DNA of 64,000 nucleotides from positions 1-64,000 of IMG/VR virus record IMGVR_UViG_3300047564_004575, one strand, 5' to 3'. The notes under the pieces are model-generated. The model ran no database searches. It was not told the DNA's origin and saw only the letters and a program-made list of their open reading frames with translations. Positions 3,930-46,251 of this stretch are shown here, piece by piece. The translations under genes were made by a program, and so were the position numbers. The stretch's first letter is position 1. The number at the start of each line of letters is the position of its first letter. Origin of the DNA: a virus.

Positions 3930-4391
3930 ATGACTATTTCCAACGCTGAAAAATTCGGACTTAATCGCATGATTGCCGGTTATATCCAGATGCAAAAACA
4001 ACTCCCCAAATTTGTCGATATTACAGAAGAGATGGCCGCGCTAGGCGCTGAAATCGAAGCATTGAAACCCCTGCTACCCGTTAAAGGTGAAGTTTTGTAC
4101 GCTGAGGGCGATCGTGATGAAATTACCACTCAACAAATCAAGGTGGGGACTTTTGTAAACGCCATTAGTGGCAGCAATATGTTTAAAGTCCCCAATGTCC
4201 CCCGCAACTTTGCTAATGGCATCCGTGAGGTGTTGTCTGGGTCGCTGAAATTTAACGCTTTTGGGGAAGAAGGAGATATCCAACTAACAAAAATTGGTGA
4301 AGCTTTAAAAGCGTTAGCGATGAAATTGATTACTAATTGTGGCGATCAAGAAGTAATTGATTTTTACGTTAACCTGGACGCAAAGCTATAG
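3930..4391 (+). CDS. hypothetical protein (possible head completion protein)
   Basis: 153-aa ORF with GAGG RBS, followed by a terminator. Confidence 0.45.
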   Translation: MTISNAEKFGLNRMIAGYIQMQKQLPKFVDITEEMAALGAEIEALKPLLPVKGEVLYAEGDRDEITTQQIKVGTFVNAISGSNMFKVPNVPRNFANGIREVLSGSLKFNAFGEEGDIQLTKIGEALKALAMKLITNCGDQEVIDFYVNLDAKL

Positions 4392-21278: not shown

Positions 21279-21938
21279 CTATGCCAGCCATCCTGATTGC
21301 ATCTGAATCAAGTCCATTTCTCTCCCGTAGTAGATAGAGCATTTACAAGCCTGGGCGCATTTACAAGACTGTCCAGGCACTGGTAAAACTCCTATCGGTC
21401 TAACGCCCATCCTGGCATATCTGAGACAATCTTCGCAGTGTTTAGCCTGCGCATCTAGTTTCCGTAACGCATGGGTGTTGTAATCGGTGTTGACAGCGTA
21501 GGAACGTCTACCCATTTCATAGCTCACCCGACTAGATTGTACAAACCTAGAAAGGCGATAATCCAGCATTTTGCGAGATAGTTTACCGTCTCTTAAGTCT
21601 TGCACTAAATTACGCAAGGCGGGATATTGATTTTGTCTTAGCTCATTAGCAATATCTAGATAATGAATAGCATAGGTTTTATCTTTCCCCCCTCTCCCAA
21701 AACGCATTAATGCAACATGACTATCCTTTACGTTTTTAGCTGTTTTTTCTTCCCAATCCCTAGCGGTGATTGTGCCATTAACTAACTGATTAGTGTCCTC
21801 AACTACCCGTTTTAAATAGGCAGCTTGATAGGCTTTGATGTAATTATTAACTTTAGATTCAGGCACTAATCTACCAGACGGATAGAGGTAACGTCTTTGC
21901 TTTTCGCTATAGATTAAATCTGGTAGATTGTACGCCAT
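21279..21938 (-). CDS. putative minor head (Mu gpF-like) protein
   Basis: C-terminal HCEDC...PVPGQSCKC..ACKC cysteine pattern. Confidence 0.6.
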   Translation of the reverse strand: MAYNLPDLIYSEKQRRYLYPSGRLVPESKVNNYIKAYQAAYLKRVVEDTNQLVNGTITARDWEEKTAKNVKDSHVALMRFGRGGKDKTYAIHYLDIANELRQNQYPALRNLVQDLRDGKLSRKMLDYRLSRFVQSSRVSYEMGRRSYAVNTDYNTHALRKLDAQAKHCEDCLRYARMGVRPIGVLPVPGQSCKCAQACKCSIYYGREMDLIQMQSGWLA

Positions 21939-22192
21939 TACTTTTTAAAGCTTTTTAGGTTGACTTTTAATTCTTTACCCATAAAATATCTTAGAATATT
22001 GCTTTTTATCATTAGCATTTTAGTCAATGCCATGATGTGAAGCCTTAACTCGTCGGCTGACGATTGACTTAACTTATCGGCAATAATCCGCAATTCTAGG
22101 GATTGCTCTAAGGTTAATTCCTGCACTTCTTTAGGTATCATGGGCTTATCCAAATTTTGACCTTGTAATTGATAGTAACCAGCGACATCCAT
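21938..22192 (-). CDS. nblA: phycobilisome degradation protein NblA
   Basis: ELTLEQSLEL...LSQSS.DEL...L.KMLMIKSNILR matches the NblA two-helix consensus. Confidence 0.75.
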   Translation of the reverse strand: MDVAGYYQLQGQNLDKPMIPKEVQELTLEQSLELRIIADKLSQSSADELRLHIMALTKMLMIKSNILRYFMGKELKVNLKSFKK

Positions 22193-25378: not shown

Positions 25379-26881
25379 ATGTCTGATACATTCCATGTTA
25401 GCTGGTTAAATGATGCCAATAACACATTACAAAGGGCGATTAGTTCAGTCGGTAATCTATCTAGCCGGGTGGGGACTTTTCATGACTCTACTAATCAAAT
25501 TGCTGTAAATTATCAACCTAGATTAACACTAGAAGAACTCTATGAGTTATTCAGTAACCCGTTAATCAATACCGCCTGCACTGCTTACCCTGTTGATAGT
25601 TTACGCCATTGTCCCCACTGGAATTTTGAAGACGATAGCGATATGGGTAACGAAGTCAAGGAAGCCATTGGTGAGATTATATTTTACGACATTGCAGGGT
25701 TTCAATATAAAGGTTTAGACGGCATCAAAGAGGCATTGATCGTTGCCAATATTGAGGGCAATTGTCACATCGTTTTAGATATTGATGATGGGAGAGAGTT
25801 AAATGAACCTGTTGATTTGGAGAATGTACAAGGCATTAAAAGCGGGGCTATTTTTGGTAGGGATAGGATTAGCTATAGTCGCGGTTACTTTGGTAAAGAA
25901 CCTCATTACACCGCCATGATGGATAATCAAAAGCCTGGTTATGCTTCCTATATTCCAGAGATTCACCCCGATAGAGTAATGCGTTTTTGGGGCGTTAAAA
26001 TGACCGGTGAAATGTTATATCGAAACGATTTTAAAAACCGTTCAATCATTGAAATGGTTATGGACAGTTTTAGTGATATGACTTTGACCAGCAAAGCCGC
26101 TTCAAACTATCTACAATCAGCATCAGGCTTTTGGTACAAGATGGATGGGCTAGCTGATATGGTTCTCCAGGGTAAAGGAGGTGACATTCAGAAACGACTA
26201 GAACTATTCAGGATGGGCTTATCTTCTATCGGCATGATGGTCATGGACTCAAACCGTGAGGACGCAGGCTTTATTAATCGGTCATTTAGTGGCGTTGATG
26301 CCCTGGTTAACCTAGTAGTCGATAATTTTGTTAGCTGTACCCGCATCGCCCGGTCACGCTTGCTAGGCTCAACAAAACAAGGGTCTATGAGTGAGTCGGG
26401 TAAAAGCGATCATGAACAGTGGGCAGAAATGGTCAGCAACTATCAAGCTGATGTCATCGCTCCCTATATTTGTCGGTTGACTGATTTGGTGATGGCTAGC
26501 GGTGGCGATCGCCCTGAATACGAGATTACATTTCCCTCTATCCTTGTCCGTTCTGAGCTTGACAAAGCACAAACCTATAAAACCTATGCCGAAGCGGACG
26601 AAAAGTACAACGCCATCGGCTTACCCGGTAACGTTATCCTAGAGTCACGATTCAAAGGCAATGATTTTAATACCACAATTACCCTAGATGAGGATGAACT
26701 AATGAGTATAGAACAGAGTGAGAATGATAATCAAAATCAAGAACAAAACGAGTCCCCCGCTATGTTGGAAGACTCAGATAAATTAGTTGGTATCGGTAGC
26801 AGTATCGATTTGCCTCTCAGTGATACCGAGTATGAATCGATTTTGAAGCTGTTAGAAATGGGAGAGGATTTGGAAGAGTGA
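25379..26881 (+). CDS. portal protein (DUF1073-like)
   Basis: IDDGREL..PVD, IHPDRV, SFSGVD, RLLG...G.SESGKSD..W. Confidence 0.8.
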   Translation: MSDTFHVSWLNDANNTLQRAISSVGNLSSRVGTFHDSTNQIAVNYQPRLTLEELYELFSNPLINTACTAYPVDSLRHCPHWNFEDDSDMGNEVKEAIGEIIFYDIAGFQYKGLDGIKEALIVANIEGNCHIVLDIDDGRELNEPVDLENVQGIKSGAIFGRDRISYSRGYFGKEPHYTAMMDNQKPGYASYIPEIHPDRVMRFWGVKMTGEMLYRNDFKNRSIIEMVMDSFSDMTLTSKAASNYLQSASGFWYKMDGLADMVLQGKGGDIQKRLELFRMGLSSIGMMVMDSNREDAGFINRSFSGVDALVNLVVDNFVSCTRIARSRLLGSTKQGSMSESGKSDHEQWAEMVSNYQADVIAPYICRLTDLVMASGGDRPEYEITFPSILVRSELDKAQTYKTYAEADEKYNAIGLPGNVILESRFKGNDFNTTITLDEDELMSIEQSENDNQNQEQNESPAMLEDSDKLVGIGSSIDLPLSDTEYESILKLLEMGEDLEE

Positions 26882-27258
26882 AACGCATTAAACACCATCA
26901 ACAGTTAAGGGAACGGATTGTAAAGGGCATGGACTCTGTCAGTGATGCCTATCAATCCGCCATGCTACAAACTATCTCCGAACCCTATCAATGGCCCGAT
27001 GGGTTTGGCGTTACTCACCGTCGCAATGGGGAAGTAGTCGTCGGCTCTAACCGTAATATCGTGGACTTGGGTAATCTTAAAAACTCCCAAACTATGTTTC
27101 GCCAGGGATTAAAAACTACCTATGAATGGTCTGGCATGGGTGAAACACCGCCAGTTATTGTCCACGAGGGAGCTACACTAGCTAACGGAACTCAAATACC
27201 ACCCCGACGCTGGACTGAGGTGGCAGTTGATAAAGTAGATTGGCAGGGATTGTTTTAG
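26878..27258 (+). CDS. putative neck/tail completion protein (HK97 gp10-like)
   Basis: RNIVDLGNLKNS...VHEG...PPRRW. Confidence 0.65.
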   Translation: MKRIKHHQQLRERIVKGMDSVSDAYQSAMLQTISEPYQWPDGFGVTHRRNGEVVVGSNRNIVDLGNLKNSQTMFRQGLKTTYEWSGMGETPPVIVHEGATLANGTQIPPRRWTEVAVDKVDWQGLF

Positions 27259-27716
27259 CCTTGAATTTTAACGATCGCCGATTTACCAAAGTTTGGTTTG
27301 ATAATTTCTCGTTTTTCTCCAGCAAGTTGTTTCCGAACCGTAGAGACTGCAGCGACTTCCGCCCCTACTATATTCAGTTCTGAAATAAATCGCTTTTGAC
27401 CATCTTGTGACAAATTAGAACAGTCAATAGATGTCTGTAATCGTCGTAATTGCTTACGTTTTTTACGGTTAGCCGCTAGGTTTTGTTTCCGAACGTAAAA
27501 TACAGCTTCCTCATCGGTCAAGATAGAAATACCGCCACTATTGGTCTTACAAACTACTTCTAATCTTGATTCGATTTGACTAACCAATTGCATCACAGCA
27601 AACGAATATTCCTGAGAGTCTACTTTATGCCCTGTAATCTTTTCGAGGTAGTCAGGGTTTATATAATCACCTTTTTGTAAGGCATCAAAATCAAAGGGAA
27701 ACTTTTCAACGTTCAT
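27255..27716 (-). CDS. hypothetical protein; candidate accessory gene of the RAMP/array locus
   Basis: 153 aa, GGAG RBS, co-oriented directly downstream of the array. Confidence 0.75.
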   Translation of the reverse strand: MNVEKFPFDFDALQKGDYINPDYLEKITGHKVDSQEYSFAVMQLVSQIESRLEVVCKTNSGGISILTDEEAVFYVRKQNLAANRKKRKQLRRLQTSIDCSNLSQDGQKRFISELNIVGAEVAAVSTVRKQLAGEKREIIKPNFGKSAIVKIQG

Positions 27717-27845
27717 TACGAAACTCCAAAATAAATAAAAAGGGAGAGGGGCAATTAAGCCCCCATTAGACTAGACTTGGCGCGACCCAACGTGACTCGA
27801 CGCGACAGGACTTGACTCGACGGAACTGAACTTGACATGGGTTTT

Positions 27846-27888
27846 GCCGTCTTCAAGAATTGCACTTGATTAAACCACTAGGGACAGC
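27846..27888 (-). ncRNA. mini tRNA-like element 1
   Basis: GCTGTC-CCTAGTGGTTTAA-TCAAG TGCAATT CTTGA-A-GACGGC. Confidence 0.75.
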
Positions 27889-27995
27889 ATGACTAGGGAG
27901 TTACCCCTAGTAATTAGACTAGACTTGACAAAACTTGACTTGACATGACATGACCGAACTCGACATGACCCAACTTGACCAAACATGATTGTTTT

Positions 27996-28037
27996 GCCCT
28001 CCGATGGAATTGCACCACCGTTAACACTAGAGAAAGC
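27996..28037 (-). ncRNA. mini tRNA-like element 2
   Basis: GCTTTC-TCTAGTGTTAA-CGGTGG TGCAATT CCATCG-GAGGGC. Confidence 0.75.
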
Positions 28038-28213
28038 ATGGGAGGGGCATAAGCCCCAAGACCTAACTAAGCTTGACTAAGCGTGACCAGTCTAAACATG
28101 GCGAACCCCGTCGAGACTCGTGACGCTATCTTAATTAGGAGAAAAACATAGACTAGACCCGACTAAACGTGGCTTGACTTGGCTGGACTGAACAAAAACG
28201 CGACTAGAAAGTT

Positions 28214-28287
28214 TGGAAGCGATACTGGGAATCGAACCCAGGATAGAGATTTTGCAGATCCCTGCCTTACCACTTGGCTATATCGCT
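28214..28287 (-). tRNA. trnC: tRNA-Cys(GCA)
   Basis: AGCGATA/TATCGCT acceptor, GCCAAGTGGTAAGGC D-arm, CT-GCA-AA loop, CTGGG-TTCGATT-CCCAG T-arm, U discriminator, encoded CCA. Confidence 0.95.
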
Positions 28288-28428
28288 TTGGAGACTAGGG
28301 AATTACCCCTAGTAATTAGACTAGACATGACCAGACGCGACTTGACGAGACGCAACCAAACAAAACGCAACCGAACATAACCGAACGCGACAAGACGCGA
28401 CTAAACCTAACACAACTCGATTGTTTTT

Positions 28429-28471
28429 GCCCCTTGCCAGAATTGCACTGGCTTAAACCACTAGGAGAGGC
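28429..28471 (-). ncRNA. mini tRNA-like element 3
   Basis: GCCTCT-CCTAGTGGTTTAA-GCCAG TGCAATT CTGGC-A-AGGGGC. Confidence 0.75.
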
Positions 28472-28576
28472 GTGACTAGGGGAATTAACCCCTAGTAATT
28501 AGACTTGACGCGACGCGACCTGGCAAAACATAACCCGACACGGCGGAACCAAACAAAACTCAGCAAGAAAATCTGT

Positions 28577-29197
28577 TTAGAGTTCGACTTTAAAGCGACC
28601 AAACTCAGGACGGCGATCGCATAGTCCGATGATTTTGCCGCTTAGATGCAAGATATCAGCAATGTCAGCTTGGTTTACAACATCTGGCATATAGTCAACA
28701 ACGATTTCCGCTTCCCATGACCGGAAAATAGGACGGGTACGCATAATAGCATTCTTCATCACACGCTCAGCCCGAACGTCAACATAGTTGGCATCCGCCC
28801 ATAACTCGTTAGTTCCTTTGTTAGTCCCAATGTCAAGACGGGCATCTTCACTAATCACAATCCCAGCTTTAAACGTCGTCCCAAGCTTCTTCTTTTTAGC
28901 ACCTGACAAAAGCATCCCTTTAATAACCGTAGCAGGTAAGCATGGCTTGCTATTGTCGGTAAAAGCAATGTCTGCCCCGTCAACGTCTAGATTGTGTTGA
29001 CCTTCCAGATAAAGACCGGCATACCATTCTAATTTGCTGATAACGTCGAGGTCATCTTCAACCTTTTTGCGCTTGCCGGTGTATTGCTTAATCAGTTGCG
29101 TGATGCCATTGCGAGGATTGACCAGAATATTGGCATTGTGCATTAACAGGGGAGTGTGTCCTATTAACTTTGCTTGCAGTGTTTTAAAACCGTCCAT
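28577..29197 (-). CDS. solitary RAMP/Cas7-like RNA-binding protein
   Basis: N-terminal strand + TPLLMH, P.LPATVIKG.L (cf. RAMP P.IPGSSLKG), C-terminal G-loop IGLCDRRPEFGRFKV. Confidence 0.75.
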   Translation of the reverse strand: MDGFKTLQAKLIGHTPLLMHNANILVNPRNGITQLIKQYTGKRKKVEDDLDVISKLEWYAGLYLEGQHNLDVDGADIAFTDNSKPCLPATVIKGMLLSGAKKKKLGTTFKAGIVISEDARLDIGTNKGTNELWADANYVDVRAERVMKNAIMRTRPIFRSWEAEIVVDYMPDVVNQADIADILHLSGKIIGLCDRRPEFGRFKVEL

Positions 29198-29226
29198 ACT
29201 TGCCTCGATGAATTTCTATATAAATC

Positions 29227-29255
29227 ATATTACCTGGCACACTGTTATTTGTCAA
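29227..29255 (-). promoter_or_regulatory. sigma70-type promoter for the RAMP gene and array
   Basis: TTGACA (29250-29255), 17 bp, TAATAT (29227-29232); GAGG RBS at 29203-29206. Confidence 0.75.
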
Positions 29256-29339
29256 CCAAAAAAGAATATGTAATGGACTTAATTTGTTTTGCCATCAAAT
29301 ATATGTGACCAAGTGGCGATCGCCACCCACCCCCATATA

Positions 29340-29411
29340 AACCCAAAACCCATACACCGTAAGGCTTTCAAAAAGTGTTGCATATACTTTAGAAACTCCA
29401 GGGGACTGCAA
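29340..29411 (+). repeat. dispersed intergenic element, copy 4
   Basis: AAAACCCATACACCGTAAGGCTTT...GTGTTGCATATACTTTAGAAACTCCAGGGGACTGCAA. Confidence 0.85.
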
Positions 29412-29476
29412 AAACTCCCCAACGGCAATAAAAAACCCGCCTAGATGACGGGATGATTGATTAGACTTCAGATGTT

Positions 29477-30217
29477 TTATTGCTGCCCCATAATCGCGTT
29501 TAGGGCTATCTTGGCTTGGCTACCAGCTTTCTTACAGACATTGACTGCTTGCCATGCGTTGCCGGTCTGTGTGTTGTTTAGTTTCATCTTTTCGGCTAGC
29601 TGTAGGAATGTCAGTTCATCCCGTTGGTGTTCTGTCATATAGTCACGGCTACCAGTCCGAACGCCAGCCAATTGATTATTGTGTTTGTTAACCGTGGCAT
29701 GATGGACACCTTCGGCTCCTCGCAATTTCAATTCATCGTGTAAGCCGTGATATTCCTTTAGGTATTTGCCGTGTTGATTTAAATGCTCTGAGACTGAATT
29801 GACTTGATCTTGGGTTGTGGTGCGACTAATGGCAATCTTAGCCAGTTCCTCAGGGGCGATCGCTAGCATTCCGCCTAATTCATTCCCCAGCGTTGCCAGT
29901 AGCTTTAATCGTTCCTTAGCTTTAGCCTTTGTTTCTGGCTTAGTCCGTTTACCGTCAATCAGAGCGTCAAGGATGGCTACCACTTCAGTCGAAGTAAACA
30001 AGGTAACACCTTGTAACCCTCCAGCAGTAAGGGCTTCAGCCTCTTTACCTGCGTTTAACGCCTCACCTTTTTGCTTGATTGTTTTGGCAGAAGCACCAGT
30101 CCATCGAGACAATGCGTTAATGCTGGAATAAAGAATTTTATCTTGATGGTCAAAATACAAATCGAATCCATCATAGGATTCTTTAATCTGCTTATCCGAA
30201 ACCTTTACGATAGACAT
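29477..30217 (-). CDS. antirepressor-like DNA-binding protein
   Basis: EAEALTAGGLQGVTLF motif recalls phage antirepressor N-termini; GGAG RBS and hairpin leader. Confidence 0.55.
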   Translation of the reverse strand: MSIVKVSDKQIKESYDGFDLYFDHQDKILYSSINALSRWTGASAKTIKQKGEALNAGKEAEALTAGGLQGVTLFTSTEVVAILDALIDGKRTKPETKAKAKERLKLLATLGNELGGMLAIAPEELAKIAISRTTTQDQVNSVSEHLNQHGKYLKEYHGLHDELKLRGAEGVHHATVNKHNNQLAGVRTGSRDYMTEHQRDELTFLQLAEKMKLNNTQTGNAWQAVNVCKKAGSQAKIALNAIMGQQ

Positions 30218-35040: not shown

Positions 35041-38000
35041 TTAACGCATCTTACGTCGATAGGTTCTTGCACCCTCGTCCTGTATTTGGGATTGGGATTT
35101 GCGGAAACTATCGGCGTTTGGTGTATTAATCACATAGGTCTGATTAAACTTATTGACCGTATTAGTGCGTGAATTATTGACCGATTGAGAAGTGTTAGCG
35201 CCGCCAGCATTGACTAGGTTTTCCCAATTGCCTTGATAGTTGCGAGATTGAGTAAATAGGCGATCGCTACCGTTAGCAAAGTTGGGGATTTTATCCCAAT
35301 TACCAGACCGTTTCAGAGCTTGGAATTTTTGAGCATCACCATTGAGAGTCGATAGAATAGCCTCACCGTCGTTCACTACTGCCAACATAGGCTTGCGACC
35401 TGTCATAGCTGATTCTTTAGCCATCACTTGGTCTAGACCATTAGCAAACTGAGGGATAAAAGAAGCACCTAGATTAACAAGGGAACCAAAGAAACCGGGT
35501 GAAGATTCAGAACCTTGTAATTGCGGAATAGCTTGCTGACCATAACCGAATAGATTAGATGCTTGCTCGGCTAAAAAGTTAGTGAATGGCATCATAACCA
35601 ATCGGTCAAATAATGTTGACGCAACAACGTCTAAAGTTTTAGTGAGAGCCTCAGTAAAGTTATTGGTTTGGAATACAGCTTCTTTCAAGTTTGCTCCTAG
35701 TTCCTTAACAAAAGGCACAGCCTCACTAAAGGATTGTTTTAAGTTGATATCAGCAATTTCTTGAGCCATTGCAACATATTGTGCCCGTTGATCACCTTCC
35801 AAACTTAATTCGTCAGCTTGAATATTTGCCCGTTTACTAGCAGTTGCCGCCATCAAACGAGCTTGGAGAATAGCGCCATCGTTTACCAACGTTCCGCCTA
35901 GATTATATTTAGCCGTGGACAGTTCCGCCATCTTGCCTACATATCCATCAACCAAAGCTAATTGCTCTTGTAAATAAGCGCGGTTTTGGGCATTAGATTG
36001 GGCAATTCCTTTAGTCGTTTCTAGTTGTTTTTTTGATGCCTCTAGTAGTTCAATTTGTTGGTCATATTGAGCGTAAGTTGTCTCTAGTCTGTCCAACTCA
36101 GCTTGTTTTTGTTCTTCACTGTAACCGGCAGCTTTAGCAATAACTTCTAAGTTGGCGATCGCCATTTCTTTGCCGTCAGTTAATCGAGTCATATCCCGAA
36201 TGGAATCAGAGATAGAACGTATTTGATTTTCATATTGGGAGGCAACATCTTGACCGGCTTGATTAACTTTTTGGGTAATCGTCAACCATCCTTTAGATGA
36301 CTCCGTTAACTGTTTAACGCTTAGGTTAGCATCATGAACACTGCGATTAGTGGACTCCAAACCGTCTTTTGTTGCGTTGACAAATTGCTGATAAGAGTCA
36401 ATTAATTGAGCGACATTTAATCGAGCTTGGGCATCAACTCCCGCCTGTTTTAGTGCATTTAACTTGTCGCCTAGTTTGTCAATATGTGCGACTTGAGCCA
36501 ACAAAGGATTAATGTCTTGGGGCTGATAAGCCTCCATCATATAGCCACCGACAGACGTATTTTGAGCAGATTCGTAAGAGCCAATCGGGTCAAAACCTTG
36601 GGGCAATGGTGGCGATTCTTGATAGGTAAATTGAGTAGGATAATTAACGTATTCAGGTTGTTGATAAAACTGCTCAGGAATTACATTACCAGCATTATTG
36701 ATAGGCGCATTAGACCCCATCGTAATAGTCGCCTGAGCTTTAATCATAGGCGGGGTTTGTTTCTGGAAATTATTATTTAACAGTTTCCGGTAACTTGCTT
36801 CCGATTGCCATTTCCAGTCATCACCAGCCCAGTAAACTTCTTTGCCATTACGGATTGCTTGCGATCCTAATGGGCGTTGACTGGCTTGTTGTTCTGATTG
36901 AATTTGAGTGCGTGCATTGGCAACCTGACGCTGTTGTTTAGCTTTTTGGAAATTAGCAATATCAACCATTCTTTCGTCAGGCGTTCTACCTACATATCGT
37001 TCAAATTGTCGCTGTAACTGAGCATCTATTGAGCGGTATTCAGCCAATTGTTTAATCAATACCTGTAAGTCTTTTTTGCTAATAGTAGACCCCAAAGCAT
37101 CGACATACATATTCATAAAGTTGCGAGCCAAGTTTAACCGTTGGGCCATTGGCGTTGTGGTATTAGCAGGATTGACTAACTCTTCTTTTTTAATAACCCT
37201 TGGCTTAGGCGCTGGTTTAGGGCTAGGTGATGGTTGGGCATTAGCCGGGGGGATTAGGCTGGGATTAGGGAAAGCATAGGGATTATCTTTTTTGATTTGT
37301 TGAACGGCACTTTTACCTGTCTCGCGTTTAGGTGTCACGAACGGTACTCGCAACGCATCATAACCAAAGTTTGCTACACCGTTTAAAAAGTTCTGAATAG
37401 GCTTAACAATAATCTCTTTTAACTGAGCATTCGATTCAAATTTAATCTCACCAGGATTAACGCCAAAGTTAAGGGATTGCATTTGATTGGTAGGCTGTTG
37501 TAACTGTCGTTGCATATTCAAAACCGAGTTAGCATACCCAGTCCCTTTACCTGTTCCAAGATTACCAAGCCCTGCATTGTAAGCAGCTAATGCTTTACGC
37601 CAATCCCCTGTTTTCTCATAAAGTAACCGCACATACTTCATGGCAATCTCGATGTTTTTCTGTACATCAAAACGGTCATTAGGATTATATCCAACATCTT
37701 TTGCTGCACCCCAACCTACCTGCATAGTGCCAACAAACGGGCCATATTTATCTTGGCTAGGAGACTTCATAATCTGCCCATCACTACGAGTATGACGATA
37801 GGTTCCTACGATAGGATTACCATTTTTGTCACGGGTTCCCGTTTCTTGGCTAGCCATCGCCAAGGCGATTTCAGCCGGTACATTAAATCGATTAGCGATG
37901 TTAACAATCACCGGCGTTAACGGATTATTGGCGACTCGCTGATTGTTCCAAATAGAAGATTGTACCCGTGTCTGTACTGGTAGTGTGGTCTGTTGTTGTA

Positions 38001-41000
38001 TCGGCTTAGGCTGTGAAATCTCACTAGGACTACCAGCAAAACCACCATACTGATTAGCAAAGTCTTTTAACCCTTGAATGTCTCCACGACTATAGGTACG
38101 GGTTGATTGAGTGGGTTGACTAACCCGATTATTCTTATCGCTCGGTACGGGGTCAATAGGACGATTTAAAGGAGTTGCGATCGCCCGACCATTCATAGCC
38201 TGTTGTGGTGGCGCTACCCGTTGAGCAAGGGGTAAAATCATCGCAGGATTGTAGCTAGGAACGCCCTGTAATTGACGGGTTAAATCTTGACCTTTAGCAC
38301 TAGATTTATCGGCACGATTCATTGCAATAGTCATGTCTTGAATTGACCGAATAAATCCCCTTGCCGCTTGTTTCATATTACGATCAAGGTCAAAGAATGA
38401 CCGATTCAATGTAATGACTTGACGGTTAAAATCACGGGTGGCATCTCGCTGTTTTTCTTCAAATTCCCTGATTTGACGTAACCGTCCGATGCGTTCTTTT
38501 TCCAAATTCAAAACATCAATTTTGATTTGTCGCTCATTAGTGTTGTTACTAAATACCGATTCGGTATAACGAAGCATAATGTCATTCAGTTGCCGCGCAA
38601 TACTGCCAGAATTACCAGGGGTGATAGATAGGTTATTAATCCGTAATTGAGTCAGTTCTAGCTGGTCTTGAGCATCATTAATTGCCTTACCAACGGATTC
38701 GACTTGAACATTAAAATCAAATGCCATGTCTTGGTAAGATTCGGCTAAAGCTCGATTACTACGCCGCAAACTAACACTGGCATCTGCTAACTGGAAACCT
38801 AAATCTTGTAGTGAACGTTGGTCTTGGATTTGTTGTGATTCAATTTGTAGCTTCAAATCCGCTACTTGACGGGCTGTATTGCGATAGTAATCTTCAAAAC
38901 CAAAGTCCTGGGTTAAATCATATTTTGCCTTAGCAATAGAGCTGCCTGCATTAGCTAGTTCGACTGACTGTTCCCTTACTCGACCACGTAATTCTTCAAT
39001 CTTAGATCGTTTCTCGGAGCTATCGCCAACATTAGAAATAGATAAAGCCTCTGCTAAAGCCTGCTCATTTTCCCGTAAGGTTTTAGCTAAAATAGCGTAG
39101 TCTTTTTTAGCCCCCTCAAGTGTTGTTTCTTGCACTTTCCGGTTAACAATCAAGCTACCTCCGCCCTGATTGTAGATATCTTCAGTGGACTTACTCAAGG
39201 CAATGGCGTTAACCGCCTTGACTCGATTCAAGGCTGATTCAACGTCTTGGATTTTATTGACAACCCGATCCCAAACATCCTCTAATGGTTTAGCAATCTG
39301 GGTTATTCCTTGACCGGCAAAATAATTCTTAATTTCTTCCGATAGTTGTTTTAACGGTTCTAGACGCTGTTCCGCTGCACGTTTAGCCGAGTCTTGCCAT
39401 CCAGAGTTATTGATTGCATCAGTCTGGGATTTAACAAAAGATTCTAAATCTTTAGAAAAAGAATCAAGTTCAATAAATGGCTTAGCCAGTTCTTTGCGGG
39501 TTTTAAGTAAATCATTTAATTCTTGGTCTAGCTTGCGAACTTCTGCCCGTGATTGTGCGGTATTCTCTAGCCCTAACGTCATGCGAAGGTCTTGCTTCGC
39601 TTTCATTTTTGCATCAATATCCTTGACTTCATTTAAAGCATTTAAAGCATTAGAACTTAGTGGTTTAGTTAAGTCGTTAACATCAAAGGTCGTATTACCT
39701 TTTGACAGTTGATTGATTGCGTTTTTATATTCTTGGTCAAACCCAATAACAGAATCAAGAAATTGATCTTTTGCTAGCGTTGGAATCTCATTAGCATTCT
39801 TAATGTAATAGTCTGACACGCCTAGTCGCTTAGCTTCTGCAATCCGTTTTTCTGACATCGACGTATCAGGAATTAAAGCATTAACAAAAGCAGATACCGG
39901 CGATTCTGTGACAAACGGGATTCGAGGGAGTTTCGGTAGCTTGTTAATTGCGTTAGATAGGGATAACACAACATCTCGCATCTTGCCCATTGCGCCAGTA
40001 GATGAGTTAATTTTATTAATCAAGTCATCAGACTTAAATGATTTCTCAGAACGTCCCATGAATATAGCTTCAAGATTAAGCTCTAGTCCCTTAGACGGTA
40101 ATTTGATAGAGCTAATCGTTTTACCCGTTTTTGCACCCTGTTCCTCTAATGTTTTTAATGCTACTTTCATCGCATCTACTGAACCGATAAATGCTTTTCG
40201 CGCTTTGTTAGATTCGGATTCGACAGTGTTAGAAAAGTCGCTGCGAGCAAAAGCCATCATGGCGACTGCTAAGCCTGCTTCAGCAGCTAACATAGCACCA
40301 CCCATCAGAATCTTTTTAGCCGCCATCTGCTTCATGCGACGATTTAGTAATTCGTCACGTTGGGACTCATAACGGACTAGAGAATCATTCTCAGGGGATG
40401 ACCCCAGATCTTTTTGATATAACCGCTTAAGTTCCCTTAATTCTTGTTGTTTTGCCTTGATAGCGTCTTGACGAGTGATAATGTTGCCACTATTGTTTTG
40501 TTCTTGATCACGAAATCCTTCGATTATATTGTTCCGGTCTTGTTTATATTGATTTAACCTTTGATTGCGTTTTTGTTCTGTCGCTAATTTGCGTTGGACA
40601 TTATATTGTTCTTTTATTTGTCGCAATTCAACTTCATTCATCGCAATAGCATCTTTGCGACTAATCTTATTGTTTTCCATCGATTCATTAATTAGTGCCT
40701 CTCTTCGTTCTTTATAGTCTTTTAAATCATTCGAAACGGTATCAATTCTTAGTTGTTTAAACTCATTACTATACTGCTTAAAAACATCGGCTGGTTTAAC
40801 ACCACCTACTGCGATTAACGTACCCCCCATTAAATCACCCATAGTACGCTTCATTGTTCGCATATTGACAACGGCATCGCTTATCGCTTTGCCCCATCCT
40901 ATTACTGCCAATGACAAGTTTTTAAAAGTAGGAACCAAGAAAAGGTTAGCTAGTACCCTTACTTGCTCAAACATAAAGACGAGGGATAGCATCTCAATCA

Positions 41001-44000
41001 CCCCGCCTGGTATCGCTTTTTTGATACTTTCAATCCCTTTTACAACCGGCTCAAAAATATTCTTAGACTCCTTAAATGGATCGAACATTGCTCCCATGTC
41101 GGCATCGCGCATATAGCGGTCAGCTACTGTAAAACCAGCGACAAACATATTGCCGACACCACGACTCATGTTTTCCATGACATTGTTTTGGGTTCCAAAA
41201 AGATCGTCTACAATGTCTGCTACGGTGCCAATGATGAACGGGGTTAATGTTCCTAGTGAATTTTTGAAGGCTGACAATAACAGATTACTTCCCCCTTTAG
41301 CCATATTGGCGATCGCAGGGGTTTTCATGATGAAAGATAAACCAATACCAATTGATGCCCATACTGCAATCAACCCGGATACTGCCAAGGCGTTTAAGAT
41401 TTTAAAGTTGTCCGCCATGAAGTTCAGGATGTTACCCCACGTATTTTTTACGAAGGTAAATAATCCGCCATACGTATCAGCAAAGTTTTTATTGATTTTG
41501 AAGTTAATGTTTTCTAACCGACTACTTGCCGCGGCGTAATTATCACCCATCGATAAAGCGACAGACCCGAAGTCATCTTTTAATACTTTGGTGACACCTG
41601 TTACCCATTTCTCAGTACCGATAGCACCACGGCTAACCATGTCATCTAATCCCGCCGTAGTGGTATCTAATGCCTTAGCAAAAACACTCATTGCAGGGGG
41701 AAATCGCTCACCTAATTGTTGACGCAATTCCTCCATGCTAATCCTGCCCTTTGCCAACATTTGAGTGTAAGCCATAAAGATTAGGTCAGCATCTTGGGTA
41801 CTTAACCCCAACGCTCGGATTGAAGCAGAAATACCCTCAAACAAATCCATCATCTCCTGTCCTGTGAGGTTGGTATTTTGAGCGGCGATCGCCATCTGAG
41901 AAAAGTTTTGTACAGCCGGTTCGACGGGTATAGAATACTTGTTAGCAATATCAGTGATTTTTTGTTGTTTTTCTTCCCCTAACTCTGAAGTTCCCTCAAG
42001 TGTTATAAATCGTTGCTTGATAGGCTCCTGTTGTAATAATGCTTGGTCTATTCGCTGTACAACCGGAGCAACTAAGCTACCGACTGCCAATGTTGCCATA
42101 GCAGGGGGGACTAAAGGCATAAATAGAGGAGCTGCGGCGATCGCGGGCATTAATTGAGGTGTAAATGTAGATGCCCCAGCCATTGCAAAGGTGACAATTT
42201 GACTCATTAAGTTACCGTCTAGTCCGGTTTTTTCACCTAAAGAAGTCCGAATTTTGCGCATAAAATTGTCATAATACTCGACAGTCCCTTCTCCCAAATT
42301 CTTCTCAGCGGTATCGCGTATTTTGTCAATTAACTTTGATTCATCAGCTCGTTTATAGATAGATTCCCCACCTTGTTTTGCAGCAAAAAACAGAGAAGAC
42401 AATCCAACGGATTTTAGTAATCCTTTAATGCCACCTACCACCGGATTATCACCTAGTTGATTGTCGGCAATGTTATCTAATAAACGACTTGCAATAGAAG
42501 CTCGTCGATCCGTCCCAATCGTCTCTTTAATTGCGTTTTGTACTTCTTGGGTTACATTACCAGTGCCTATCTGATTACCTTGCTGATTAACGCCAAATCC
42601 TTGGGTAGCTCGTTTTTCCTGTTCATCATTATTCCTGCTACCAAAGAATCTTTTAACACGACTACTAAGTTTAGAGATAATGCCTTCATTGATGCTGACA
42701 ACATCTTCAAATACCTGGTCGGCAACAGTTGTCATCACCTTATCTTTTTTGGCTTTTACGCTATCTCTGAATTGACGTTCTTTTAAAGCGATCGCATCTA
42801 TAGACTTCTGATAACGTTCAAACTCCCGTAAACGCTGTTCCTTGACTTTAATTAGTTCATCTTGGGCACTACGATTTTGTGCAATAGCAATTTGCTCTTT
42901 CCTTGCAATATCACGCTGTTCTTTGGCTTCTTTTTGATTAACATTAGCCAGCAACCCATTGTAGCGAGTTTCAATAGCGGGGGATAAATCCTGGTATTGA
43001 TTTAATTCAGTTTGACGATTTTGTTTAGCCGCATTACGACGACGATTAAACTGTTCACGGATGCGTTTTTGTGATTCCTGACTACGACCATCTAATGATC
43101 GCAACATGGCAACTTGTAATCCATTGTCAAGTTCATCATATTTTTTATTGATTTCATCACGGGCGATTTTATTGTTAGCATCAATCTCCCTCGATTCTGC
43201 TAACTCTTTATTCATTCGTTGGGTGATTTTAGCTCTTACAGCATTATATTTGGAGCTTACGTCATTACGTTGTGACCCGATATCACTAAGGCTAGATTCT
43301 AGCTGATCAGCCAACAATTGATTACTTTTATCAAAATCTTGCTGAACTTTATTGACAGCATCTTTTAATCCAACGCCATACCGTTCAAAAAACTTTTTAT
43401 CAACTTTTGACTTAGCAGTTCTCAAAAACGCAATGTAATTATTGACATCGTTAGAGACTAAATCTAATCCGCCAATGGTCGTAATTTTATCCATCTTAGA
43501 TAAAATCTGACCGCCATCATTTAGGCTTGTTTTTGGTATTTTGTTGCCATTGCCAGTAGGGACAGGAATATTATTTAATGTTGTAGGATTGTAGATCTTT
43601 GCAAATTGGTCTTCGGCAAATCCAATTCGCCCCGCTTCGTTTTTACCTAGAGCAAAAAGCTTAACTGAATTAGCAGTAATGGAGTCAATTTTTTGATTAA
43701 CAAATTTAGCAGTCTTATCCCAATTCTTACGAATCCAGTCAGTGGGGCCAGGTGAACCTTCAGACATATTTTTTTGTAACGGATAGGCTTGTTTTTTAGC
43801 CGTTTCCGTCATCTCCCACATATCATCTTGTACAGCTTTCTTGGTTTTCTCCCAATTTTCTTCTATTTTTTTATTCTCATTTTTTGATGCCTTTATTTTA
43901 GTAATATCAGGCATTTCAACAGCGTCAGCATCAAGGGTTACGCCTTTAAATGCCGACTCATCCATTTTGTATTTTTTGACATCAAAACCAAATCCTTTAC

Positions 44001-46251
44001 CTTGCTCTTCTAGTCGCTTAACTTGAGCTTTAAAAGCACTAGATAAAGAAGCAATATCACCCTTCATTCTGTCCAACGGGTCAATAGTTCCCCGCATTTT
44101 AGCTAAGAATTCAAACGTTACTTTTTGAGCTGCTTTATATTGTGATTCCCAGTCACTTTGAACAGTGGACTGAATGATAGGATCTAACTGTTTAAATTCA
44201 GCCGGCTTGAGTTGTTTTAAGCCTGGCAATGCTACCGATTGAGGCATAAAATCGCCTTGATTAGCCCGTTCAATTCCCGCAGCCTTTGGTAAATACTCTC
44301 CAATTAACTTACGTTGATTTGCAGGCAAGGTCGGCAAGTAAGCATCAAGATTCTGAGCTTTTTCAATCAACTTAGATACTTTACTAGATGCAACCTTACC
44401 TACACTCTCAATCTGTCTATAAAGTTTAGGCTGTTCTGTAGATGGGGCGATCGCCTCAGTGATTTTGTTTTGAGCTTTCTTAGCCCCCGCCTCACCCAAT
44501 ACCCGTAAACTTTGACCACCCAAGACAGCCGCACCGATTTCAGCCCCTCCACCCGTAACAAAACCGACTGCGGTTTGAATAGCAGACTGGAGATTACCAA
44601 TGATGGCATTGGCTAATGGATTGCCCATAGCACTAGGTAGAACGCCGGTAATTTCTCGAACCAATCCGCTAATCGTTTGAACAAACCCCGCCTCTAACGG
44701 ATTAACCCCACTGGCGATCGCATCCTTCACTAGATGGGTAATCAACTGTGCGATTTGATGTCCCCCTGGTAACTGAGAGATACCGGCAAAAGCCGCAGTC
44801 GGGATAGCAATTTTAGCAGTGGTTTGAATAGCACCTTTCGCTTTGTTGGGCATCCCCATCGGGTCTAGAGAAAACACACCTTGCTCGATTGCTTTCGCAC
44901 CCTTGTACCCAGCTTGACCAATTCCTATTGCTCCCCTTACCCCTGCCTTGGCTGATTCGACTAATGTGGAGATAGCTTCTCCCTTTAAATCCCCAGCCGC
45001 CAACTTTCCCTTCTCCGCCATCAAACTAACGGATTGTTTCGGCTTAGTCAGGTAATCCATGACCGTTGGATTATCCGTAGTCCGTACAATGACATCACTA
45101 TCAACTTTTGCCCCTTTTTGATATTCAATTAATCGGTCACGATACCCCTTCATTACAGGGTCATCACCGACATCACCGATTGTTTTTAGTTGGCTAGAAA
45201 TATCGTTCTTGATTTGTCGAACTTGTTTATAGTCATTACTATTTACCGCTAAATCTAAACGACTAGACAGTTCACCGATTAACTTTTCAGCATCACGATA
45301 CTGTTTTAACTTGGCTGATACTTGTCCAGAAACAGCATTTAAAGTAGCAGACAATTTGGCGATCGCATCAATCTGTAAATTGACTTGCTGCCCCATCGCA
45401 ATTACTTCTGCATTGGATGGGATACCTTTAGCCCCAATCGTTTTATTTGATTCTCTTAAATTTTCCTTGATTGTTTTTGACTGTTGTTTTAAATCATCAA
45501 TAACAGCCTTTTCTTTGTCTAAACCTTTTGACTTCGATACTGACTTGGAAACACTACCAAGTAAGTCATCAACATCATCCATCTGGGATTGATACTGTTT
45601 AATCCTTTCAGCTTCTTTTTTCTTAGCTTGTACATTCGGGAAAGCGTAACTGATCGTAGAGTCAGCCGCTTTTTTACCCATATCTTTTAAGTCAACATTT
45701 AAGTCTTGACTTAAAATAGACATAAAGCCTTCAGACAATTCTTTCGATATAGTCTGACCAAACCCTTCAAAAAAGCCCCTACCAATACCGGCTAATGGCG
45801 CAGTAGCAATATCTCCAAATTTATTAACTACTTTCTTTATTTCCCCGGTAAGCTTTTGTTCAACCTCATTAAATAAAGTCCCTGAACCGTAACCCTTGTC
45901 TTGACCCTGCCCCCCAGTACTACGATTAGACTGAGCACTATGATTATTTTTTTCACGCTCTTCTCTTAGCTCTTTTAATGATTCCTTGACTTCATCTACT
46001 TCAGATGTATCTACGCCAATAACAATAGGATTCTTTTTATAAAACTCTACGGTTTCCGATAAGTGATCCTGCTTAACATCCAAAAGCTTGTTTAAATCAT
46101 GCAAAGCTTTGGCGTTTACTTTAGGATTAATTGCGCCTGCCCGTTCAATCCGAGACAATTTAGCCATTGCTTTATTGACGGCACTATCAATATCACGGCT
46201 CAATTGAGAGTCATCAGCAACTAATTCTAAAACCAAAGTCTCAAGATTCAT
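35041..46251 (-). CDS. tape measure protein with lytic transglycosylase domain
   Basis: 3736 aa, coiled-coil rich; AYTQMLAKGRISMEELRQQLGERFP tape-measure motif; SLT motifs MASQET...GTMQV...ALAAYNAG; C-terminal NADSFRKSQSQI. Confidence 0.92.
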   Translation of the reverse strand: MNLETLVLELVADDSQLSRDIDSAVNKAMAKLSRIERAGAINPKVNAKALHDLNKLLDVKQDHLSETVEFYKKNPIVIGVDTSEVDEVKESLKELREEREKNNHSAQSNRSTGGQGQDKGYGSGTLFNEVEQKLTGEIKKVVNKFGDIATAPLAGIGRGFFEGFGQTISKELSEGFMSILSQDLNVDLKDMGKKAADSTISYAFPNVQAKKKEAERIKQYQSQMDDVDDLLGSVSKSVSKSKGLDKEKAVIDDLKQQSKTIKENLRESNKTIGAKGIPSNAEVIAMGQQVNLQIDAIAKLSATLNAVSGQVSAKLKQYRDAEKLIGELSSRLDLAVNSNDYKQVRQIKNDISSQLKTIGDVGDDPVMKGYRDRLIEYQKGAKVDSDVIVRTTDNPTVMDYLTKPKQSVSLMAEKGKLAAGDLKGEAISTLVESAKAGVRGAIGIGQAGYKGAKAIEQGVFSLDPMGMPNKAKGAIQTTAKIAIPTAAFAGISQLPGGHQIAQLITHLVKDAIASGVNPLEAGFVQTISGLVREITGVLPSAMGNPLANAIIGNLQSAIQTAVGFVTGGGAEIGAAVLGGQSLRVLGEAGAKKAQNKITEAIAPSTEQPKLYRQIESVGKVASSKVSKLIEKAQNLDAYLPTLPANQRKLIGEYLPKAAGIERANQGDFMPQSVALPGLKQLKPAEFKQLDPIIQSTVQSDWESQYKAAQKVTFEFLAKMRGTIDPLDRMKGDIASLSSAFKAQVKRLEEQGKGFGFDVKKYKMDESAFKGVTLDADAVEMPDITKIKASKNENKKIEENWEKTKKAVQDDMWEMTETAKKQAYPLQKNMSEGSPGPTDWIRKNWDKTAKFVNQKIDSITANSVKLFALGKNEAGRIGFAEDQFAKIYNPTTLNNIPVPTGNGNKIPKTSLNDGGQILSKMDKITTIGGLDLVSNDVNNYIAFLRTAKSKVDKKFFERYGVGLKDAVNKVQQDFDKSNQLLADQLESSLSDIGSQRNDVSSKYNAVRAKITQRMNKELAESREIDANNKIARDEINKKYDELDNGLQVAMLRSLDGRSQESQKRIREQFNRRRNAAKQNRQTELNQYQDLSPAIETRYNGLLANVNQKEAKEQRDIARKEQIAIAQNRSAQDELIKVKEQRLREFERYQKSIDAIALKERQFRDSVKAKKDKVMTTVADQVFEDVVSINEGIISKLSSRVKRFFGSRNNDEQEKRATQGFGVNQQGNQIGTGNVTQEVQNAIKETIGTDRRASIASRLLDNIADNQLGDNPVVGGIKGLLKSVGLSSLFFAAKQGGESIYKRADESKLIDKIRDTAEKNLGEGTVEYYDNFMRKIRTSLGEKTGLDGNLMSQIVTFAMAGASTFTPQLMPAIAAAPLFMPLVPPAMATLAVGSLVAPVVQRIDQALLQQEPIKQRFITLEGTSELGEEKQQKITDIANKYSIPVEPAVQNFSQMAIAAQNTNLTGQEMMDLFEGISASIRALGLSTQDADLIFMAYTQMLAKGRISMEELRQQLGERFPPAMSVFAKALDTTTAGLDDMVSRGAIGTEKWVTGVTKVLKDDFGSVALSMGDNYAAASSRLENINFKINKNFADTYGGLFTFVKNTWGNILNFMADNFKILNALAVSGLIAVWASIGIGLSFIMKTPAIANMAKGGSNLLLSAFKNSLGTLTPFIIGTVADIVDDLFGTQNNVMENMSRGVGNMFVAGFTVADRYMRDADMGAMFDPFKESKNIFEPVVKGIESIKKAIPGGVIEMLSLVFMFEQVRVLANLFLVPTFKNLSLAVIGWGKAISDAVVNMRTMKRTMGDLMGGTLIAVGGVKPADVFKQYSNEFKQLRIDTVSNDLKDYKERREALINESMENNKISRKDAIAMNEVELRQIKEQYNVQRKLATEQKRNQRLNQYKQDRNNIIEGFRDQEQNNSGNIITRQDAIKAKQQELRELKRLYQKDLGSSPENDSLVRYESQRDELLNRRMKQMAAKKILMGGAMLAAEAGLAVAMMAFARSDFSNTVESESNKARKAFIGSVDAMKVALKTLEEQGAKTGKTISSIKLPSKGLELNLEAIFMGRSEKSFKSDDLINKINSSTGAMGKMRDVVLSLSNAINKLPKLPRIPFVTESPVSAFVNALIPDTSMSEKRIAEAKRLGVSDYYIKNANEIPTLAKDQFLDSVIGFDQEYKNAINQLSKGNTTFDVNDLTKPLSSNALNALNEVKDIDAKMKAKQDLRMTLGLENTAQSRAEVRKLDQELNDLLKTRKELAKPFIELDSFSKDLESFVKSQTDAINNSGWQDSAKRAAEQRLEPLKQLSEEIKNYFAGQGITQIAKPLEDVWDRVVNKIQDVESALNRVKAVNAIALSKSTEDIYNQGGGSLIVNRKVQETTLEGAKKDYAILAKTLRENEQALAEALSISNVGDSSEKRSKIEELRGRVREQSVELANAGSSIAKAKYDLTQDFGFEDYYRNTARQVADLKLQIESQQIQDQRSLQDLGFQLADASVSLRRSNRALAESYQDMAFDFNVQVESVGKAINDAQDQLELTQLRINNLSITPGNSGSIARQLNDIMLRYTESVFSNNTNERQIKIDVLNLEKERIGRLRQIREFEEKQRDATRDFNRQVITLNRSFFDLDRNMKQAARGFIRSIQDMTIAMNRADKSSAKGQDLTRQLQGVPSYNPAMILPLAQRVAPPQQAMNGRAIATPLNRPIDPVPSDKNNRVSQPTQSTRTYSRGDIQGLKDFANQYGGFAGSPSEISQPKPIQQQTTLPVQTRVQSSIWNNQRVANNPLTPVIVNIANRFNVPAEIALAMASQETGTRDKNGNPIVGTYRHTRSDGQIMKSPSQDKYGPFVGTMQVGWGAAKDVGYNPNDRFDVQKNIEIAMKYVRLLYEKTGDWRKALAAYNAGLGNLGTGKGTGYANSVLNMQRQLQQPTNQMQSLNFGVNPGEIKFESNAQLKEIIVKPIQNFLNGVANFGYDALRVPFVTPKRETGKSAVQQIKKDNPYAFPNPSLIPPANAQPSPSPKPAPKPRVIKKEELVNPANTTTPMAQRLNLARNFMNMYVDALGSTISKKDLQVLIKQLAEYRSIDAQLQRQFERYVGRTPDERMVDIANFQKAKQQRQVANARTQIQSEQQASQRPLGSQAIRNGKEVYWAGDDWKWQSEASYRKLLNNNFQKQTPPMIKAQATITMGSNAPINNAGNVIPEQFYQQPEYVNYPTQFTYQESPPLPQGFDPIGSYESAQNTSVGGYMMEAYQPQDINPLLAQVAHIDKLGDKLNALKQAGVDAQARLNVAQLIDSYQQFVNATKDGLESTNRSVHDANLSVKQLTESSKGWLTITQKVNQAGQDVASQYENQIRSISDSIRDMTRLTDGKEMAIANLEVIAKAAGYSEEQKQAELDRLETTYAQYDQQIELLEASKKQLETTKGIAQSNAQNRAYLQEQLALVDGYVGKMAELSTAKYNLGGTLVNDGAILQARLMAATASKRANIQADELSLEGDQRAQYVAMAQEIADINLKQSFSEAVPFVKELGANLKEAVFQTNNFTEALTKTLDVVASTLFDRLVMMPFTNFLAEQASNLFGYGQQAIPQLQGSESSPGFFGSLVNLGASFIPQFANGLDQVMAKESAMTGRKPMLAVVNDGEAILSTLNGDAQKFQALKRSGNWDKIPNFANGSDRLFTQSRNYQGNWENLVNAGGANTSQSVNNSRTNTVNKFNQTYVINTPNADSFRKSQSQIQDEGARTYRRKMR

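Follow-up and report, generated by a model that had tools for sequence, protein, structure and literature searches.

Anticodon-less tRNA mimics as putative separators of the guide RNAs in a phage VIPR array

The Viral Interference Programmable Repeat (VIPR) system, first described in 2026, is built on a phage-borne minimal RAMP protein and carries out RNA-guided DNA silencing, according to the searchable text of the preprint that reported it (10.64898/2026.04.26.720920). The same text describes the guide, termed vrRNA, as a run of 9-16 pentamers with a fixed GGY and a variable NN, closed by an invariable 3' tail; the target DNA is read through the NN positions with a one-base skip, and the repeat may follow "a related consensus" (10.64898/2026.04.26.720920). 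Seven types are distinguished there, and the arrays may be staggered or interspersed with hammerhead ribozymes (10.64898/2026.04.26.720920). Another preprint of 2026 reports, in its searchable part, non-canonical VIPR repeats that include GAC/NN. The searchable main text of the VIPR literature makes no mention of tRNA-like elements, which the supplementary files may show; in most of these papers the searchable text contains neither tRNA nor RNase P, and names ribozymes and staggered units.

The window, by which we mean the whole 64-kb stretch of DNA analyzed here, is a fragment of a tailed-phage genome and belongs to a source record of 72.7 kb. Pfam matches within it comprise a large terminase, a portal protein, NblA, ThyX, an integrase and the β clamp of DNA polymerase III. 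The gene of phage NblA, a protein of phycobilisome degradation, is located at 21938-22192 on the minus strand and indicates a cyanobacterial host. The window also contains palindromes of the form GCGATCGC, which we take to be of a type typical of cyanobacteria, and an ORF of 3736 residues occupies 35041-46251 on the minus strand.

Two smaller minus-strand ORFs, at 28577-29197 and 27255-27716, enclose a stretch of tracts with a strict 5-nt period. The first of them, directly upstream of the array, encodes a 206-aa protein that matches the "SUSP1 Vipr protein" (PDB 36pp_D) over query residues 5-206 with an E value of 5.3e-16 in phmmer, and phrog_4652 with an E value of 5.7e-39. A scan of viral contigs for eight pentamer units picked out more than 132 loci, many of which are non-simple arrays, and among 51 of the pattern-picked loci an ORF family of ~200 residues recurs beside the tracts (26 rows, some from overlapping loci). 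BLAST clustering placed the 206-aa ORF of the window in this recurrent family. Alignment-based searches then served to collect 215 Vipr-homologue loci, a single-protein query having given none. The features of the locus, in the order of transcription, are as follows.

29227-29255, minus strand: promoter-like site upstream of vipr, called by consensus match alone (10 of 12 consensus positions)
28577-29197, minus strand: vipr gene, 206-aa RAMP-like Vipr protein
28502-28569, minus strand: vrRNA-A, leader motif (28569-28561) and 13-pentamer tract
28476-28495, minus strand: 3' tail hairpin of vrRNA-A, no T-run after the hairpin
28429-28471, minus strand: mini-tRNA E1, with acceptor stem, D-loop-like linker and T-arm (72.2 bits)
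28319-28418, minus strand: vrRNA-B tract, 20 consecutive NNGUY pentamers
28295-28312, minus strand: 3' tail hairpin of vrRNA-B
28214-28287, minus strand: tRNA-Cys (GCA) with encoded CCA, at the junction of units B and C (ARAGORN; Rfam tRNA model, 65 bits, E 2.9e-13)
28044-28195, minus strand: vrRNA-C, two degenerate tract pieces and a hairpin
27996-28037, minus strand: mini-tRNA E2 (64.6 bits)
27917-27986, minus strand: vrRNA-D tract, 14 pentamers
27893-27910, minus strand: 3' tail hairpin of vrRNA-D
27846-27888, minus strand: mini-tRNA E3 (71.2 bits)
27769-27838, minus strand: vrRNA-E tract, 14 pentamers
27735-27764, minus strand: tail hairpin of vrRNA-E with a T-run after it, the sole terminator-like site in 27600-29400
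27255-27716, minus strand: candidate vipr-accessory gene (vap), 153-aa ORF downstream of the array, its role suggested by position

Each repeat unit consists of two variable bases followed by G, U (rarely C) and a pyrimidine, hence GUY/NN, and the tracts comprise 13, 20, 14 and 14 units in addition to one degenerate tract, the longest running through 20 units in succession. Within the window, tracts of 5-nt period are confined to this place and to the minus strand, with 24 pattern matches compared to none in shuffles. Read in the vipr sense, nearly all of the 215 Vipr-homologue loci (~200) have a dominant motif class that starts with G, and none shows a C-rich reverse-complement class, which argues that the tracts are co-oriented with vipr. 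Given this co-orientation, together with the tRNA, the G-U pairs of the elements described below and the terminator, the RNA strand here is the minus strand. Readings of the tracts as a cluster of primase sites or as the ligand of a TRAP-like ring protein were dropped once the adjoining ORF matched Vipr, and coding sequence was rejected because inspection by eye showed neither a ribosome-binding site nor a consistent peptide.

Pentamer arrays of GUC or GAC type with other short separators are present in many further viral contigs (L132, L139, L168 and others), where the separators are 4-nt spacers, a conserved 33-nt spacer, or a spacer of ~25 nt that ends like the 3' end of a tRNA. In about half of the contigs with GUC/GAC arrays the Vipr gene lies opposite the GTC-reading strand, implying RAC/NN repeats in those contigs.

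From sequence comparison we show here that the array region is the guide-RNA array of a VIPR system, because its adjoining protein matches Vipr and its parts follow the published vrRNA architecture; the initial annotation had taken the tracts for guides, and this assignment holds. The 206-aa protein fits Vipr, the minimal RAMP homologue of ~20 kDa. The tracts are built of pentamers, with GUY instead of GGY as the fixed part. A structured invariable 3' tail is present as well, in that the spacer and hairpin are conserved after units A, B and D, and variant tail hairpins stand after units C and E. The NN code had no self target within the viral genome itself, and two patterns of 10 units each gave 0 exact matches in viral contigs.

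The position that corresponds to the G-loop residue of SUSP1 Vipr, where an aromatic side chain stands, is an arginine in the Vipr of the window and in its five closest relatives (67-88% identity), and a tyrosine in more distant relatives. One of the VIPR preprints states in its searchable text that such an aromatic residue is stacked against the second G in GGY. The arginine coincides with GUY tracts in both the window and L333, a related locus described below; GGU tracts are found in L253, whose Vipr shares 45% identity.

Three elements of 42-43 nt are interspersed in the array on the minus strand, at 28471-28429, 28037-27996 and 27888-27846. The initial annotation had located them at these positions, each between the 3' hairpin of one tract and the start of the next, and both the positions and the placement were confirmed for all three. 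Each element has an acceptor stem and a T-arm joined through a short D-loop-like linker that retains two G of a D-loop. The 7-nt loop TGCAATT is identical in the three window copies, four A follow each copy, and loop and linker stay invariant while the stems drift. The joint pattern of linker and loop has exactly three matches in the 64-kb window, all at the elements and all on the minus strand, compared to none in 100 dinucleotide shuffles; the whole 72.7-kb record likewise gives three matches, and its backwards control none.

Folded singly as minus-strand RNA, the elements adopt the fold of acceptor stem plus T-arm with minimum free energies of -16.0, -12.7 and -12.5 kcal/mol, for which the single-sequence z-scores are weak to modest (-1.4, -0.8 and -2.0). 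On the plus strand the elements give weaker or different folds (-11.7, -4.9 and -10.1), because the acceptor stems hold G-U pairs. Covariation had been claimed for the stems, and it was recovered: in the alignment of the three copies all 33 stem cells are standard pairs, and 7 of the 11 pairs have changed on both sides. Neither the observed pairing nor the covariation score was reached by any of 500 shuffles, and controls with slid positions pair at 30-58%. Addition of the orthologue from L333 and of a seventh acceptor pair yields 46 paired cells out of 48 and compensatory change in 7 of 12 pairs, compared to 35-54% pairing in the slid controls, for a sample of three paralogues and one orthologue. 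RNAalifold independently gives the same two helices. Both E2 and L333 have 7/7 acceptor pairs, whereas the seventh layer of E1 and of E3 is a C-A mismatch; the G-C pair that closes the T-stem is unchanged in all four copies. In the T-loop the second position is non-canonical, and in L333 so is the third.

By anatomy the elements are tRNA-like minihelices with the 7+5 bp build of a minimal substrate for RNase P and RNase Z: an acceptor stem coaxial with a 5-bp T-stem (12 layers), a 7-nt loop closed by a G-C pair, and an unpaired nucleotide after the acceptor; at 42-43 nt they have no cloverleaf, anticodon arm or D arm of a canonical tRNA. ARAGORN and the Rfam tRNA model call tRNA-Cys alone within the window and none of the three elements, which also match no Rfam family. 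An Rfam scan of 27000-29500 at E values up to 10 returned the tRNA and three chance-level matches, with no hammerhead ribozyme and no tmRNA or permuted tmRNA among them, and ARAGORN called no tmRNA in the window. In the minimum-free-energy fold of the whole 842-nt precursor, E1 alone is fully folded, E2 keeps its T-arm, and E3 is lost to long-range pairs.

The same linker motif and 7-nt loop occur in acceptor/T-arm elements of ~45 nt in five low-GC viral contigs (L059, L065, L074, L086 and L089). Each of these elements has a terminator immediately in front of it and either a structural gene or another terminator behind it; none matches an Rfam family, and neither a Vipr gene nor a tract was noticed close by. 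An initial loose motif scan of viral contigs had given at least 114 stretches, mostly by chance, with a paired T-stem in 8 of those listed. A permuted (two-piece) phage tmRNA in L009, recognized by Rfam at 88 bits, has a T-loop of the same unusual 7 nt, as do the near-identical sequences in L051 and L061. That the mimics of the window clade and phage permuted tmRNAs have this T-loop in common hints at a shared, phage-specific variant of the tRNA elbow.

L333 encodes a Vipr 78% identical to that of the window and has four GUY-type units. Its single mini-tRNA scored 41.4 bits (E 8e-8) against R1, a covariance model of the window clade, and L333 is the one locus among the 215 Vipr-homologue loci that R1 matched. 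R1 matched none of 151 genomes from the class of one cyanobacterial MAG, and neither of the two MAGs that contain L431 and L445. In L333, an AT-rich -10-like box stands before the leader motif with which units 1, 2 and 4 begin; unit 3 alone is without the leader, and it alone is preceded by the mini-tRNA.

The window follows the same rule. Unit A has the leader motif and no mimic, and units B, C, D and E have no leader, with a mini-tRNA or tRNA-Cys standing before each of them. The four internal junctions hold three mini-tRNAs and one true tRNA, and the mimics and tRNA-Cys are placed alike with respect to the tail hairpin on one side and the following tract on the other. The mini-tRNAs are confined to junctions that have neither a promoter-type leader nor a terminator. 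The conserved 9-nt leader motif follows a -10-like box at 28561-28569 (minus strand) in the window and at 4132, 4250 and 4530 in L333; it marks the units without a preceding tRNA or mimic and may be a promoter-proximal 5' leader. Unit C is composed of two tract pieces, 28195-28151 (9 units) and 28089-28060 (6 units), with a hairpin at 28057-28044, and neither mimic nor leader stands at the junction between the pieces. By eye, the T-run and AT-rich piece between them resemble the terminator-plus-promoter junction of units 3 and 4 in L333, which suggests that unit C represents two fused, decaying units.

The single promoter-like site on the minus strand across 27600-29400 lies upstream of vipr, and the internal tail hairpins have no T-runs. 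With one promoter-like site, one terminator and no terminator between the units, the vrRNAs are most likely derived from one precursor. Since a functional tRNA needs excision by RNase P and by a 3'-end activity, cutting at the tRNA-Cys junction is close to certain.

In L118-L120, whose portal proteins are 71-81% identical to that of the window, no array, tRNA or mimic is present near the portal gene, compared to 25379-29197 in the window, so that the cassette is not syntenic there and behaves as a mobile accessory module. Queried by BLAST with the array, the phage collection returned nothing but one irrelevant match of 81 nt. The 153-aa ORF downstream has a counterpart of 53% identity at the equivalent position in L333, and no match in Pfam, PHROG or PADLOC; PADLOC likewise gave no match for the proteins neighboring the array.

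As the acceptor strands of different mimic families could not be aligned by MAFFT, other loci were searched with a Python descriptor against reversed-sequence controls. The descriptor demanded a 7-bp acceptor, a 5-bp T-stem, the T-loop consensus and GG in the linker, at most 80 nt from a 5-nt-period tract. It matched near tracts in 4 of the 215 Vipr-homologue loci (~2%), namely L321, L333, L399 with three copies and L438, and in 1 of 132 tract-pattern loci, L158, with five copies and a sixth seen by eye; the reversed sequences gave 0 matches near tracts. By so strict a measure the layout is rare. One or two further mimics were recognized in L451 by a 6-bp criterion and by eye. The mimics of L321, L399, L438, L451 and L158 have canonical T-loops and GG in the linker, their sequences are unrelated to those of the window, and no Rfam family matches the mimics of these loci at E values up to 1. 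One of the L399 copies is miscalled by ARAGORN as a 93-nt tRNA. The mimic-bearing loci are attributed to different hosts, including an Alistipes MAG and a Streptomyces.

Outside the window clade the mimic lies 3' of a tract in every case. L158, on the minus strand, has AAC/NN tracts in the vipr sense, arranged as six units and then a terminator, with a mini-tRNA of 41-42 nt and canonical T-loop directly after each tract. In L158, L399 and L438 the mimic follows the tract without a separate tail hairpin, so there the mimic may itself serve as the tail.

Bacterial RNase P and RNase Z accept minihelices of acceptor stem and T-arm. We regard it as probable, and as the best reading of the locus, that these two enzymes cut the array transcript at the mini-tRNAs. 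A single minus-strand transcript would start at the promoter upstream of vipr, run through five or six vrRNAs, each of 13-20 GUY/NN pentamers and a short tail hairpin, and end at the single terminator. The putative separators would be the anticodon-less tRNA mimics, with an acceptor stem of 6-7 bp stacked on the 5-bp T-stem. Host RNase P would cut on the 5' side of each mimic and leave the 3' end of the upstream vrRNA just past its tail hairpin, and RNase Z, or an equivalent activity on tRNA 3' ends, would cut past the unpaired A after the acceptor and free the 5' end of the next vrRNA. At one junction tRNA-Cys would do the same separating job; cyanobacterial tRNA genes mostly have no encoded CCA. 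Vipr would then polymerize on every released tract. We infer the extent of the transcript, the enzymes and the cut sites, next to a structure, a covariation and a junction logic that the sequences show. The locus has no Cas6-type gene, and the initial annotation had proposed that host tRNA enzymes replace such a nuclease; the anatomy of the elements, the junctions, tRNA-Cys and the recurrence at other loci speak for this, and the cutting itself keeps the standing of a proposal. More broadly, we lean slightly towards the view that phage VIPR arrays took up anticodon-less tRNA mimics as separators more than once and independently of each other, here along with a working tRNA, handing maturation over to the universal host machinery for tRNA ends.

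Other functions of the elements were weighed against this reading. The mini-tRNA might stay on the upstream vrRNA as its 3' tail, as a cap against exonucleases or a stop for the Vipr filament, with at most its 3' side being cut. Published vrRNAs indeed end in an invariable structured tail, according to the searchable text (10.64898/2026.04.26.720920), and in L158, L399 and L438 the mimic stands directly after the tract or ~20 nt further on with no other tail hairpin. However, all units of the window already own a conserved tail hairpin, no mimic follows the last window unit or three of the four L333 units, and behind one unit lies a bona fide tRNA, which has to be cut out before it can function; the mimic is thus not part of the guide here, and we consider the tail function unlikely. 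A somewhat smaller chance is left for released mini-tRNAs that act on their own, for instance as decoys or sponges for tRNA-binding enzymes or for tRNA-targeting defense nucleases, their position being incidental or their role dual. An invariant loop and linker with drifting stems would be expected if a protein reads the elbow, and tRNA-related countermeasures are frequent in phages. Nothing ties the elements to a defense system, however, the neighbors being blank in PADLOC, and unrelated mimics with ordinary T-loops obey the same junction logic elsewhere, which a generic processing signal fits better.

The elements could instead be decayed phage tRNA genes that have lost the anticodon and D arms and are now functionless. 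A real tRNA gene does lie in the same array, and unit C shows that the array decays; yet compensatory change in four copies with 46 of 48 cells paired and with invariant loops, the orthologue kept at 78% Vipr identity, and the non-random placement together make such decay very improbable. We give least credence, close to none, to tracts that work as DNA, as primase sites or iterons, or as plus-strand RAC/NN vrRNAs with the tRNA-like elements as unrelated neighbors. GTC and GTT are recognition triplets of phage primases (T4, and T7 according to the searchable text of PMC12839067), two plus-strand promoter-like matches fall within the tracts, GAC/NN is among the non-canonical VIPR repeats in the searchable part of a 2026 preprint, and the L158 tracts are AAC/NN in the vipr sense. 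Against this, the Vipr gene adjoins the tracts, a tail lies 3' of the tract on the minus strand alone, that strand also carries the terminator, the tRNA and the mimics, whose G-U pairs fix their orientation, tracts and vipr are co-oriented over the 215 loci, and the promoter matches on the plus strand arise from the complement of the repeat.

Processing by host RNase P and RNase Z, if true, would bear on how multi-guide VIPR arrays mature, since some systems would depend on these host enzymes through tRNA-mimic separators. This would constitute a third, host-dependent route of array processing beside hammerheads and staggered units, provide a simple sequence rule that predicts mature vrRNA ends, and offer a compact natural part of 43 nt for guide multiplexing. 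In addition, the pairing of a GUY/NN repeat variant with a changed G-loop makes it possible to test how the fixed trinucleotide is read by Vipr. The VIPR system and its punctuation by hammerheads were already known; punctuation by tRNA mimics would be new as far as the searchable text goes, with a mechanism that we propose from the anatomy of the array. For natural tRNA-like separators of guide arrays, the searchable literature yielded engineered cases and reviews alone.

Several known systems share parts of this architecture. The tRNA-like domain of tmRNA and mimics of the mascRNA type likewise combine an acceptor stem and a T-arm with a reduced D region; compared to tmRNA, the window elements have no tag reading frame. 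In mitochondrial tRNA punctuation and in the t-elements of plant mitochondria, tRNAs or tRNA-like structures between RNAs are the cut sites of RNase P and RNase Z. There the flanking RNAs are organellar mRNAs and rRNAs, whereas the window has a phage guide-RNA array and mimics devoid of anticodon and D arms. In engineered polycistronic tRNA-gRNA arrays, and for Haloferax crRNAs with t-elements, endogenous RNase P and RNase Z free the guides without a Cas6-type nuclease. Those arrays are man-made for CRISPR, whereas in the window a natural counterpart would serve another RNA-guided system. Within VIPR, type II of phage SUSP1 and of a P. fulva prophage similarly has a homologous Vipr, repeats with a 3' tail, an array beside vipr and a small accessory gene; the SUSP1 tail, however, is a hairpin with a pseudoknot, and the searchable text mentions no tRNA-like element (10.64898/2026.04.26.720927). 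The hammerhead-interspersed arrays of types I and V, as far as the searchable text describes them (10.64898/2026.04.26.720920), likewise possess Vipr, co-transcribed pentamer guides and a structured element between vrRNAs that defines their ends. In the window, by contrast, this place is taken by a tRNA mimic, for which host enzymes are proposed instead of a self-cleaving ribozyme, and the repeats are GUY/NN instead of GGY/NN.
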